The notes under the pieces: model-generated | The model's input: the letters and a program-made list of their open reading frames with translations, nothing else | Database searches by the model: none | What the model was told of the DNA's origin: nothing | Shown: positions 43,086 through 45,350 of the stretch, in pieces | Position numbering within the stretch: position 1 is the stretch's first letter | Layout of the letters: every line of letters starts with the position of its first letter | Source: Escherichia coli O127:H6 str. E2348/69 | GTDB lineage: Bacteria > Pseudomonadota > Gammaproteobacteria > Enterobacterales > Enterobacteriaceae | Length of the DNA stretch: 64,000 nucleotides | Assembly: GCF_000026545.1 (NCBI RefSeq) | Contig: NC_011601.1 | Direction: 5' to 3' (one strand) | Made by a program: the position numbers and the translations under genes

Positions 43086-44663
43086 CCCCCAGCTAGGCTC
43101 TGTCTCTTATACACAAATCCCCACCCGGGGATTTGTGATGTCTGTCAGTCTGCTTTAGGGGGACTCTTTCCATCCGGTAGTTTCCTTCCTCCCCGGCAGC
43201 GATTTTTTGAACTTTTTCCTCACCCGTTGATCTTCTCTTATATTTCATTTTCTTCGGGTCTGTTATGGTACTTTCTGATTGTTATTCATGGGCTAACGAG
43301 CAGTTTGGACATGCCCGTCTCGGTGATCCGCGTCGTACACGACGCCTTGTGTCACTGGCCTCTTCTCTCGCTCAGCATGCAGGTCTTTCTATTGTGAAAT
43401 CATCCCAGTCCACTGCTCAGGTTGAAGGTGCGTACCGCCTGATACGTAACCCGTCTGTGTCCCCGCAAGCCATTGCCGAAGCCGGATTTACCGCCACTGT
43501 AAGGGCATGTGAGGCTCATCCGCTGCTCCTCGCGCTGGAAGACACCACCACCATTAACTTCAGTCACAGTACGGCATCTGATGACCTGGGGAATACCACC
43601 ACTAACCCGAAGACGCGCGGGCTGCTGGCTCACTCTGTCCTGATGTACGCCCCCGACAGCGCCCTGCCAGTCGGTCTTATCGAACAGCAGCGCTGGAGTC
43701 GTGCCACGGACACCTACGGTGTTAAGCACCAGCGAAAAGAACGTCCCTATGAAGAAAAAGAAAGTTACCGCTGGCAGCAGGCTTCGGAGCGCATGGCCGA
43801 ACGGCTGGGGGAGATACAGAAACGGGTAATCACTGTCTGTGACCGGGAAGCGGATATCTGGCATTACCTGCATTATAAAGTCAGCCACGGGCAGCGCTTC
43901 GTGGTGCGTGCAGCACAGAATCGCCGGCTGGAAGAAGCACCCGGCAAGCTCTTCGAACTGCCGGAAGTCCTGGCAACCGCGGGAAGCCACACGCTGAATG
44001 TGATGCAAAAAGGCGGGCGGGCAGCCCGCCAGGCCCGGATGTTCATCAGTTACAGCGAAGTCAGCATAAAAAATCCCGACAACAGCGGCCAGGCGCTCCC
44101 GCTCACGTATGTCTGTTGCCGGGAGCAGGCAGAGGACGGCGCCTGCTGGCATCTGCTGACGTCAGAAAAAGTGGCGAGTGCCGCCGATGCGCGACGTATC
44201 GTCAGCCATTACGAGCGACGCTGGCTGATAGAGGAATACCACAAGGCGTGGAAAAGTGGTGGTACATGTGTGGAATCGCTGCGAATGCAGACCCGGGATA
44301 ACCTCGAGCGCATGGTGGTTATCAAGGCGTTTATCGCGGTGCGGGTGCTGGGCCTGCGGCAGGGCGGTATCAGTGAAGAAACACAAAATGACAGCTGTGA
44401 GAAAATACTGACGCCGACAGAGTGGAAACTGCTGTGGGTTAAGCTGGAAGGAAAACCGCTTCCGTCACAGATGCCGACACTGAAATGGGCCTGTCTGAAA
44501 CTGGCGAAACTGGGGCGATGGCATGACAGCAAACGCACCGGTCGCCCCGGTTGGGTAGTCATGTGGGATGGCTGGTTCAGACTTCAGGATATGGTTGAGG
44601 GTTACCTGGTGATGAAGTCTCTTGATCAGGAGATCTGATCAAGAGACAGAGCTAGGCTGGGGG
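43086..44663 (+). mobile_element. IS4-family (IS50-like) insertion sequence
   Basis: Imperfect terminal inverted repeats CCCCCAGCTAGGCTCTGTCTCTT (43086) and revcomp of aagagacagagctaggctggggg (44639-44663), containing the CTGTCTCTT motif of IS50 ends; Tn5-Tnp-like transposase inside. Confidence 0.8.
43265..44638 (+). CDS. IS50-like DDE transposase
   Basis: 457 aa, colinear with Tn5 transposase as recalled (LGDPRRTRRLV..., ...YERRWLIEEYHKAWKSG..., ...NLERMV...). Confidence 0.85.
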   Translation: MVLSDCYSWANEQFGHARLGDPRRTRRLVSLASSLAQHAGLSIVKSSQSTAQVEGAYRLIRNPSVSPQAIAEAGFTATVRACEAHPLLLALEDTTTINFSHSTASDDLGNTTTNPKTRGLLAHSVLMYAPDSALPVGLIEQQRWSRATDTYGVKHQRKERPYEEKESYRWQQASERMAERLGEIQKRVITVCDREADIWHYLHYKVSHGQRFVVRAAQNRRLEEAPGKLFELPEVLATAGSHTLNVMQKGGRAARQARMFISYSEVSIKNPDNSGQALPLTYVCCREQAEDGACWHLLTSEKVASAADARRIVSHYERRWLIEEYHKAWKSGGTCVESLRMQTRDNLERMVVIKAFIAVRVLGLRQGGISEETQNDSCEKILTPTEWKLLWVKLEGKPLPSQMPTLKWACLKLAKLGRWHDSKRTGRPGWVVMWDGWFRLQDMVEGYLVMKSLDQEI

Positions 44664-45350
44664 TTCCGGAAAGCTTTCAGCTTTGAGCCAGTTATTAAAA
44701 CCCCTTTTGATTTGTTAAAACACCTTGCGGTCTGGCAACTGCAAGTGTCAAACAAGAAATCAAAAGGGGGTCCCAATGGGGAACGAAAAGAGCTTAGCGC
44801 ACACCCGATGGAACTGTAAATATCACATAGTATTTGCGCCAAAATACCGAAGACAGGTGTTCTACAGAGAGAAGCGTAGAGCAATAGGCTGTATTTTGAG
44901 AAAGCTGTGTGAGTGGAAAAGTGTACGGATTCTGGAAGCTGAATGCTGTGCAGATCATATCCATATGCTTGTGGAGATCCCGCCCAAAATGAGCGTATCC
45001 GGCTTTATGGGATATCTGAAAGGGAAAAGCAGTCTGATGCTTTACGAGCAGTTTGGTGATTTGAAATTCAAGTACAGGAACAGGGAGTTCTGGTGCAGAG
45101 GGTATTACGTCGATACGGTGGGTAAGAACACGGCGAAGATACAGGATTACATAAAGCACCAGCTTGAAGAGGATAAAATGGGAGAGCAGTTATCGATTCC
45201 CTATCCGGGCAGCCCGTTTACGGGCCGTAAGTAACGAAGTTGGATGCAAATGTCAGATCGTGTGCGCCTGTTAGGGCGCGGCTGGTAAGAGAGCCTTATA
45301 GGCGCATTTGAAAAACCTCCGGCTATGCCGGAGGATATTTATTGTTTTTC
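44664..45350 (+). mobile_element. IS200-like element (IS200/IS605 family), approximate limits
   Basis: Contains the 152-aa Y1 (HuH) transposase gene; hairpin cctccggctatgccggagg at 45313-45335; ends not precisely defined. Confidence 0.7.
44776..45234 (+). CDS. tnpA: IS200 transposase TnpA (Y1 HuH)
   Basis: MGNEKSLAHTRWNCKYHIVFAPKYRRQ...HIHMLVEIPPK...YVDTVGKN, near-identical in pattern to IS200 TnpA as recalled. Confidence 0.9.
   Translation: MGNEKSLAHTRWNCKYHIVFAPKYRRQVFYREKRRAIGCILRKLCEWKSVRILEAECCADHIHMLVEIPPKMSVSGFMGYLKGKSSLMLYEQFGDLKFKYRNREFWCRGYYVDTVGKNTAKIQDYIKHQLEEDKMGEQLSIPYPGSPFTGRK

Follow-up and report, generated by a model that had tools for sequence, protein, structure and literature searches.

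ISEc13 and IS200 in the late region of a lambdoid prophage of Escherichia coli E2348/69: arrangement and target sites

Homing to terminators or palindromes is known from several kinds of mobile elements, among them the class C group II introns, which target terminators, and IS1397, ISKpn1, and IS110-family elements, which target REP sequences; the transposition chemistry of all of these differs from that of IS200. Within the IS4 family, IS231A prefers the target GGG(N)5CCC and is often nested in other mobile elements. For Tn5, a weak target consensus has reportedly been derived (A-GNTYWRANC-T). In phage lambda, the polymerase modified by the late antiterminator Q reads through terminators.

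IS200 was discovered as a polar insertion in hisD, transposes very rarely, has a tnpA start site near nt 40, and carries at nt 12-34 a left-end hairpin that is experimentally supported as a bidirectional terminator (PMC4513863). Among insertion sequences, the IS200/IS605 elements show the strongest enrichment of terminator-like sequences upstream (2026 preprint, 10.1101/2025.07.22.666184).

The locus described here lies in E. coli O127:H6 strain E2348/69, in a stretch of 64,000 nucleotides (the window) that is 100% identical to the E2348/69 chromosome CP059840.2. Its IS200 copy resembles the family in its length of 711 bp after subtraction of the insert, in its Y1/HUH TnpA, and in its STnc490 leader, but differs in that the left-end hairpin is split by ISEc13, with loss of the published terminator. 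ISEc13, in turn, has a transposase homologous to that of Tn5 along its full length and shares with Tn5 the 9-bp duplication seen at the prophage site, while the transposase alignment shows no Met where the Tn5 inhibitor protein starts. The right end of ISEc13 is identical to what we take to be the 19-bp inside end of IS50, and its left end agrees with the presumed outside end at 17/19 positions.

The prophage and its late region

The two elements are located in the late region of a lambdoid prophage, whose features relevant here are as follows.

19971 to 60771, no strand: lambdoid prophage of 40.8 kb at the potB/potC junction (annotation, direct repeat, empty attB)
36935 to 37477, + strand: Q-like late antiterminator gene, 180 aa, DUF1133 (PHROG 753)
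40980 to 42830, + strand: nanS-p-type SASA family carbohydrate esterase, late cargo gene (RefSeq annotation, PHROG 143)
43042 to 43073, + strand: phage intrinsic terminator with an 11-bp stem, a 5-nt loop, and T6 (-21.3 kcal/mol)
45394 to 45600, + strand: class II pinholin gene S, 68 aa (annotation, PHROGs, phage 434)
45600 to 46097, + strand: SAR-type endolysin, RrrD-like (annotation, PHROGs, phage 434)
46094 to 46531, + strand: Rz-type spanin gene (annotation)

A 14-bp att core (CACCTTCTTATTCA) is present at 19971-19984 and again at 60758-60771, and an exact empty attB exists in E2348/69 "variety 2" (LT827011.1); the prophage still excises precisely. According to the annotation, most of the head and tail genes are missing from it, and it appears unable to build particles. 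The Q-like protein, the holin, and nanS-p were assigned with PHROGs (for the Q-like protein, PHROG 753, "anti-termination protein Q-like," with E = 3e-78), and NCBIfam gave no match for any of the three. As the preliminary description of this DNA had stated, two elements, one of them Tn5-like and of the IS4 family and the other an IS200, lie between nanS-p and the lysis genes S-R-Rz. The start codon of gene S follows 50 bp after the right end of IS200.

The terminator downstream of nanS-p has the same sequence in the plaque-forming phage 434, in which it is annotated as a terminator directly upstream of the pinholin gene and in which a nanS-p-type gene likewise lies upstream of terminator and pinholin. 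The sequence also occurs in phage 2B8, Stx1 phages, H-19B, and four E. coli prophages. On this comparison, it is the phage, and neither IS, that contributes the terminator at 43042-43073. A terminator at 43043-43073 had been listed before among the barriers to late transcription; the structure is real, but it is not an added barrier, since it is identical in phage 434.

Boundaries and nesting of the two elements

Related prophages free of ISs had been proposed as a comparison, and they delimit the insert well, given that the window, once 2270 bp are removed, reads as phage 434 and four E. coli prophages do at this place. The empty site reads GGCGGCTTTTTT|GTTTTTC in phages 2B8 and 434, and the prophage empty sites of four E. 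coli genomes are 100% identical over 600 bp. IS200 was inserted right after the last T of the phage terminator, and no bases are duplicated in the filled site relative to the empty one (GGCTTTTTT|GTTTTTC). The insert is composed as follows.

43074 to 45343, + strand: IS200C interrupted by ISEc13; 2270 bp = 711 + 1550 + 9 (filled versus empty site)
43074 to 43099, + strand: IS200 nt 1-26, with the left tip, the left arm of the hairpin, and the loop (AACCCCCAGC-TAG-GCT...; sequence, folding)
43091 to 43099, no strand: left copy of the target duplication AGCTAGGCT made by ISEc13
43100 to 44649, + strand: ISEc13, IS4 family, IS50-like, 1550 bp (matches annotated ISEc13 copies)
43265 to 44638, + strand: ISEc13 transposase, 457 aa, intact open reading frame (NF033590, Tn5 alignment)
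44643 to 44766, + strand: 5' leader of IS200 tnpA, Rfam STnc490 (RF01405), 116.9 bits against a gathering score of 56
44650 to 44658, no strand: right copy of the target duplication AGCTAGGCT made by ISEc13
44776 to 45234, + strand: IS200 tnpA, Y1/HUH transposase, 152 aa (NF033573, PDB homologues)
45316 to 45343, + strand: IS200 right-end hairpin CCTCCGGC-TAT-GCCGGAGG with tail ATATTTATT (folding)

IS200 thus extends from 43074, to the left of ISEc13, as far as 45343, and both ISEc13 and its 9-bp duplication sit within the IS200 left-end hairpin. The insertion point is the dyad of this hairpin (AACCCCC-AGCTAGGCT-GGGGGTT), the central 9 bp of which are duplicated on both flanks of ISEc13. Deletion of 1550 + 9 bp leaves an IS200 of 711 bp, equal in length to the uninterrupted copy in PhiR63_2, whose left end, fully read, matches the reconstructed hairpin base for base. 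By this reconstruction, ISEc13 is nested in IS200, and the two elements do not lie side by side. The tandem arrangement claimed in the preliminary description has to be given up accordingly, and the target-site duplications through which it proposed to check its reading turn out to be 9 bp (AGCTAGGCT) for ISEc13 and none for IS200.

TnpA, the sole gene of IS200, was recognized by the model NF033573 (146 bits, cutoff 55) and by its PDB homologues 2ec2 and 2a6m/2vhg (IS608 TnpA), and terminal inverted repeats are absent from IS200C. An intact left-end hairpin, as in the reference copy, folds with -18.7 kcal/mol. In the window, this hairpin consists of two separated halves, neither of which folds better than shuffled sequence; likewise, helix 1 of the STnc490 match does not pair at the ISEc13 insertion point, its left arm now being 1.56 kb upstream. 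The right-end hairpin (45316-45334; -15.9 kcal/mol, z = -4.2, weak T-run) is the final IS-borne terminator-like structure ahead of S.

The element at 43100-44649 is 99 to 100% identical to RefSeq-annotated ISEc13 copies in many E. coli genomes and stands 0 to 2 bases apart from the copies in five other genomes. Its left end is CTGTCTCTTATACACAAAT and its right end, read inward, CTGTCTCTTGATCAGATCT; both open with CTGTCTCTT (at 43100 and 44649), so that the first 9 bp form perfect inverted repeats. The transposase scored 514 bits against the NCBIfam IS4 model NF033590 (cutoff 160), aligned through residues 6-453 with the Tn5 transposase (4dm0/1muh; E = 6e-84), and in this alignment retains the DTT, DREAD, and EE..HK motifs of the DDE region. 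A terminator scan found no terminator-like site on the + strand inside ISEc13. An IS4-family element with a Tn5-like transposase and inverted repeats had been announced at nearly this position, and these attributes stand, except that the element is exactly 1550 bp long and not 1.58 kb. The matches of ISEc13 and of IS200 alike are far above what chance would give.

The sole point in favor of a composite transposon, or of a cargo module bounded by ISs, is that two transposase genes lie close together. However, the window contains one ISEc13 and one IS200, with no second copy of either, nothing besides the two IS elements is found between the boundaries, and once exactly 2270 bp are taken out, what remains is the sequence found in phage 434 and in the four E. 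coli prophages. The empty-site comparison refutes such a module, the probability of which we regard as negligible, and simple insertions without cargo, as claimed before, are borne out by the single ISEc13 and the single IS200. More generally, where transposase genes are neighbors, nesting ought to be looked for before a tandem arrangement or a composite transposon is assumed.

Target sites and the order of insertion

All five independent IS200 insertions examined (the window, hydN, trpA, PhiR63_2, and Z1323CEC0015, the last offset by 1 bp) have a hairpin and a T-run directly upstream; in PhiR63_2, IS200 adjoins a terminator-like hairpin between ren and ninB.

For ISEc13, BLAST matches in E. 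coli supplied the flanks, and the target sample comprised 12 independent sites from the top of one BLAST ranking. Counted from the target-site duplication, C occupies positions -5 to -2 in 11, 12, 9, and 12 of the 12 sites, and G occupies positions +2 to +5 in 12, 11, 12, and 9 of them. The duplication measures 8 or 9 bp over the copies examined (8 bp in 7/12 sites), and at the agp-yccJ and aaeR-tldD sites ISEc13 is found in both orientations in different strains. Comparison of these sites indicates that ISEc13 picks short CCCC(Y)-N8/9-(R)GGGG palindromes, a choice that over the 12 sites is far stricter than the consensus reported for Tn5. IS231A, like ISEc13 a member of the IS4 family, also has a short, dyad-symmetric G/C target, but the two differ in motif, spacing, and IS subgroup, and ISEc13 is not placed in IS231. 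In the portions of the literature naming ISEc13 that were accessible, we found no description of this target rule, which is possibly the sole unreported point of the locus, both elements being known and annotated.

The IS200 left-end hairpin contains a perfect match to the CCCC(Y)-N8/9-(R)GGGG pattern, which makes it a hot spot for ISEc13, especially in E2348/69, where ISEc13 has undergone a burst. With about 30 copies of ISEc13, the E2348/69 chromosome ranks first among 5426 genomes, and of its IS200 copies the left end is intact in ∼5 and interrupted in 3 (∼3/8); these copy numbers are BLAST place counts under E-value cutoffs, the junctions being counted at a strict E-value. One of the interrupted copies, at the hydN/DUF4259 locus, shows the same IS200/ISEc13 junction as the prophage. 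Another, downstream of trpA, was found by searching the same genome with a synthetic query of the opposite-orientation junction; here ISEc13 occupies the same position with the same target-site duplication but in the opposite orientation and with one base different. As judged from its orientation, the trpA copy must be an independent insertion event, which makes the IS200 left-end site a hot spot for ISEc13. A plasmid collection searched for the IS200/ISEc13 junction gave no match, and a scan of a genome contig collection for the 38-nt ISEc13 left end gave 0 matches.

The hydN copy raises the question of whether IS200::ISEc13 moved as one 2270-bp unit, by means of the IS200 ends and TnpA, between hydN and the prophage. 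All 2270 bp agree between the two copies (100% identity), which also share their orientation and the precise IS200-type boundaries and occupy sites that are both empty in other strains; moreover, ISEc13 leaves just 26 bp of IS200 on its left side, a length at which gene conversion would not be easy, and in single-stranded DNA a 23-bp stem with 3 mismatches could form from the flanking CCCCCAGC/GCTGGGGG arms and the terminal repeats of ISEc13. Yet the opposite-orientation insertion at trpA proves the hot spot, so that a separate insertion of ISEc13, which with ∼30 copies is very active in this lineage, suffices. The identity of the copies cannot discriminate between the routes, given that ISEc13 copies from unrelated strains differ by 0 to 2 bases. 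In addition, IS200 transposes rarely (PMC4513863), and its left-end hairpin is disrupted here. We therefore consider movement as a unit unlikely.

The locus is explained with high likelihood by one known element having inserted after the other, independently and each according to its own target preference. First, a 711-bp IS200C, co-oriented with late transcription, entered directly behind the T-run with which the phage terminator ends; later, the 1550-bp ISEc13 entered the dyad of the IS200 left-end hairpin. The nesting came about because ISEc13 prefers a small palindrome that IS200 carries.

Consequences for IS200, the lysis genes, and the spread of ISEc13

By analogy with IS608, the IS200 left-end hairpin is also the probable left-end site of TnpA. 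The IS200 copy in the window is probably immobile, because this hairpin, terminator and probable TnpA site in one, has been destroyed. At the same time, the right end of ISEc13 has taken the place of the sequence that preceded the tnpA start site of IS200, and tnpA is therefore probably cotranscribed with the ISEc13 transposase gene.

The preliminary description had also expected the terminators of the IS elements to block Q-dependent late transcription and to uncouple the expression of holin, endolysin, and spanin from induction. In favor of this, foreign and co-oriented DNA now takes up 2.27 kb between nanS-p and S, late transcription still has two + strand terminator-like hairpins ahead of it (43042-43073 and 45316-45343), and IS200 first became known through its polarity in hisD (PMC4513863). 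That effect, however, concerned ordinary polymerase and not an antiterminated one. Of the two hairpins, the one at 43042-43073 is native and found at the same place in the plaque-forming phage 434. The experimentally supported terminator of IS200 is split by ISEc13, which itself has no terminator-like site on the + strand, leaving, of the IS-borne candidates, just the IS200 right-end hairpin with its weak T-run. A gene for a Q-like antiterminator is present at 36935-37477, and particle formation is already defective in this prophage. From what is generally known of Q, the modified polymerase is expected to read through the 2.27-kb insert, so the lysis genes are probably not strongly uncoupled from Q, although the insert may exert some polarity. 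A block of late transcription by the IS elements thus seems improbable, harm to the lysis genes is not likely, and the claimed uncoupling from Q-dependent read-through finds no support in the native terminator, the Q-like gene, and the defective state of the prophage. Any uncoupling of lysis would matter little, because the prophage has lost most of its head and tail genes and cannot, by its gene content, build particles. For the phage, the insertions are of little consequence, since the prophage is decayed, the reference strain that carries it is well studied, and the mobile DNA is of an ordinary kind.

Of wider interest is the tentative view, to which we give somewhat less than even weight, that ISEc13 is a strongly site-selective relative of Tn5 whose burst in E2348/69 disabled a set of terminators. 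The recurrence of ISEc13 in IS200 and in terminator hairpins would follow from its dyad-symmetric target rule. If this is true, the palindromes targeted by ISEc13 are often the tops of intrinsic-terminator hairpins, and the burst removed the protective left-end terminator from 3 of ∼8 IS200 copies, so that IS200 tnpA, which is normally silent, would now be exposed to read-through from the transposase gene of ISEc13. The target rule could then help to forecast where termination is disturbed in strains in which ISEc13 expands, and a sharply target-selective relative of Tn5 might interest engineers of Tn5-type transposases.

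The nested ISEc13 and IS200 elements

The window is a 100% match to CP059840.2, the chromosome of enteropathogenic E. coli E2348/69, and RefSeq annotates the neighboring genes as "IS4-like element ISEc13 family transposase" and "IS200/IS605-like element IS200C family transposase," both members of named, already annotated IS types. A SASA-family esterase (nanS-p type) lies upstream and a class II holin, RrrD lysozyme, and lysis protein lie downstream, an annotated gene order that bears out the preliminary description of an IS pair separating nanS-p from the lysis genes.

Features of the IS pair (window coordinates)
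43042-43073: phage-native terminator, hairpin plus T6; phage 434 carries it as an annotated terminator immediately ahead of the pinholin ribosome-binding site
43100-44649: ISEc13, exactly 1550 bp, start CTGTCTCTTATACACAAAT, end ...AGATCTGATCAAGAGACAG
43265-44638: ISEc13 transposase, 457 aa, NCBIfam NF033590, 514 bits (cut-off, 160)
44776-45234: IS200 TnpA, NF033573, 146 bits (cut-off, 55)
45316-45334, then ATATTTATT: IS200 right-end hairpin, the only remaining IS-borne terminator-like structure

The ISEc13 transposase aligns over nearly its full length with Tn5 transposase (E = 6e-84) and retains the motifs surrounding the catalytic residues. At the position where the Tn5 inhibitor protein starts, ISEc13 has no aligned Met. 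The Tn5 match and the NF033590 hit agree with the IS4-family, Tn5-like type assigned earlier; the length, then given as 1.58 kb, is 1550 bp. The right end of ISEc13 (44631-44649) equals what we take to be the 19-bp inside end of IS50, including its GATC sites, while the left end (43100-43118) has two mismatches to the presumed outside end, one of them a T at position 4, presumably as in the engineered hyperactive "mosaic end." The NF033573 score likewise upholds the presence of an IS200 copy, and solved-structure relatives of its TnpA include IS608 TnpA.

The two elements had been described as tandem insertions. ISEc13 is flanked as ...GTGCACAGAAAACCCCC AGCTAGGCT ISEc13 AGCTAGGCT GGGGGTTCCGG..., and the uninterrupted IS200 of phage PhiR63_2 is 711 bp with left end GTGCACAGAAAACCCCCAGCTAGGCTGGGGGTTCCGG; IS200 therefore begins upstream of ISEc13, at 43074, and 711 + 1550 + 9 adds up to the 2270 bp seen at 43074-45343. 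In independent agreement, the Rfam family STnc490 (IS200 leader) matches 44643-44766, where the ISEc13 end replaces the left arm of the first helix. Flanks, lengths, and broken helix thus place ISEc13 inside IS200 with a 9-bp target duplication, AGCTAGGCT on both sides, rather than beside it. The dyad of the IS200 left-end hairpin is the center of this duplication; when intact, the hairpin has a folding energy of -18.7 kcal/mol, and either half in the window folds no better than shuffled sequence.

Related prophages lacking the ISs provide the empty site, ...GGCCGTCAGTGGGTGACACTGGCGGCTTTTTTGTTTTTCTTTACTTTC..., in phages 2B8 and 434, and the joined flanks (600 bp) are found at 100% identity in four E. 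coli genomes. In the window, the 2270 bp lie between TTTTTT and GTTTTTC with zero duplicated bases, so the hairpin plus T6 at 43042-43073 is the phage's own terminator. All five IS200 insertions examined (window, hydN, trpA, PhiR63_2, and strain Z1323CEC0015) directly follow a hairpin and T-run, at window 43042-43073 and, in the other retrieved loci, at L007 ~3420-3454, L017 ~1425-1454, L003 ~1455-1483, and L009 ~565-598. The T-runs end TTTATT, TTTTTT, or CTTTTT, and in every case tnpA is directed away from the terminator. The Z1323CEC0015 copy uses the identical phage terminator 1 bp further left and is thus an independent insertion. A recent preprint (10.1101/2025.07.22.666184) reports an enrichment of terminator-like sequences ahead of ISs, with IS200/IS605 showing the strongest effect.

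ISEc13 hot spots and target preference

Among 5426 complete E. coli genomes, only 4 contain the ISEc13/IS200 junction: three E2348/69 assemblies and strain cM8a, where it lies on a plasmid and is truncated by IS91. On that plasmid, p2 of a Malawian strain (L008 ~4990-5060), the ISEc13 right end is reduced to ~28 bp, and the junction is present twice, adjoining an array of IS91-family elements. BLAST place counts put the chromosomal ISEc13 copies of E2348/69 at ~30, the highest number in the collection, and its IS200 copies at ~8, 3 of them interrupted.

E2348/69 has two such junctions, the second in an identical 2270-bp unit between hydN and a DUF4259 gene, a site empty in many strains. Given this identity and the clean IS200 boundaries at hydN, movement of the entire unit between the hydN locus and the prophage was one candidate explanation. 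A search for the opposite-orientation junction, however, located one in E2348/69 itself, downstream of trpA; it has the same duplication, and its ISEc13 differs by one base. Reversed at the same IS200 position, this must be a separate event, which marks the IS200 left-end hairpin as a hot spot for ISEc13.

Target sites rebuilt from ISEc13 copies of other strains (n = 12 independent sites) all had a C-run left and a G-run right of the duplication, with C at -5, -4, -3, and -2 in 11, 12, 9, and 12 sites and G at +2, +3, +4, and +5 in 12, 11, 12, and 9; the agp terminator site, for example, reads CCCCC GCGTGAAGC GGGGG. The window without ISEc13 contains only three such motifs in 64 kb, and the sole 5+9+5 one is the IS200 hairpin. 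At both the agp-yccJ terminator (locus L006 versus L021) and the aaeR-tldD spacer (L022 versus L024), ISEc13 faces opposite ways in different strains, and the duplications are reverse complements of each other; these two sites are recurrent hot spots beyond IS200.

Duplications are 8 bp (L010, L011, L013, L015, L022, L023, and L025) or 9 bp (window, L006, L016, and L020), the 8-bp ones mostly with T left and A right (CCCCT-N8-AGGGG); from a Tn5-like element, 9 bp would be expected throughout. On plasmid pMAR2 of E2348/69 (L014 301-1850), ISEc13 is flanked by unlike 9-mers, CTGCAAGGA and GTCATACAG, with half the C-run/G-run pattern kept on each side, which suggests recombination between two ISEc13 copies.

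The nested insertion was driven by target preference, reminiscent of IS231A with its reported preference for GGG(N)5CCC. The sharp target rule is the only point here that may be new; no description of it was found in the literature consulted on ISEc13.

Consequences for IS200 and the prophage

Nucleotides 12 to 34 of IS200 form a bidirectional terminator, and tnpA starts near nucleotide 40 (PMC4513863). ISEc13 entered after nucleotide 26, so this terminator would be lost, the ISEc13 right end supplanting the DNA upstream of the tnpA start. Since the ISEc13 transposase gene ends 11 bp short of that right end and no + strand terminator was found downstream of it, cotranscription of IS200 tnpA with this gene is plausible. 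If IS608 is a guide, the split hairpin probably doubles as the left-end TnpA binding site, and with its loss this IS200 copy is probably immobile.

The prophage spans 19971-60771 (40.8 kb) at the potB/potC junction, edged by the 14-bp repeat CACCTTCTTATTCA. In E2348/69 "variety 2" (LT827011.1; L026 42901-43054) all 40.8 kb are missing and one 14-bp core remains between potB and potC, a join indicating that precise excision is still possible even with morphogenesis genes gone. A truncated S49 protease (C-like) gene abuts a truncated NlpC/P60 (K-like) gene at ~52789-53237 (L001 21950-22398), so that capsid, tail tube, tape-measure, and related genes between portal and K, most of the head and tail genes, appear to be deleted. 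The prophage also carries several pseudogenes and further mobile debris, namely, an IS481-family element at ~33372-34460, whose transposase gene is flanked by an HNH endonuclease gene and hokD, and, at ~59650-59960, an integrase-core fragment within the tail-fibre region. The spot where stx sits in Stx phages holds the following.

39238-39484: two tRNA genes (RefSeq tRNA-Ile and tRNA-Arg; two Rfam tRNA hits)
40169-40358: STnc100 sRNA family match, 123.6 bits
40384-40719: IraM anti-adapter gene, minus strand

The IS pair had been proposed to be polar on late transcription, uncoupling the lysis genes from Q. This is not supported: the terminator at 43042-43073 is the phage's own, ISEc13 has destroyed the best-documented IS200 terminator, no + strand terminator-like site was found inside ISEc13, and the prophage has a Q-like antiterminator gene. 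In lambdoid phages, Q-modified polymerase passes terminators over many kilobases. The arrangement is real but ordinary; some loss of lysis-gene expression may occur, and it would carry little weight for phage production given the absence of most head and tail genes.
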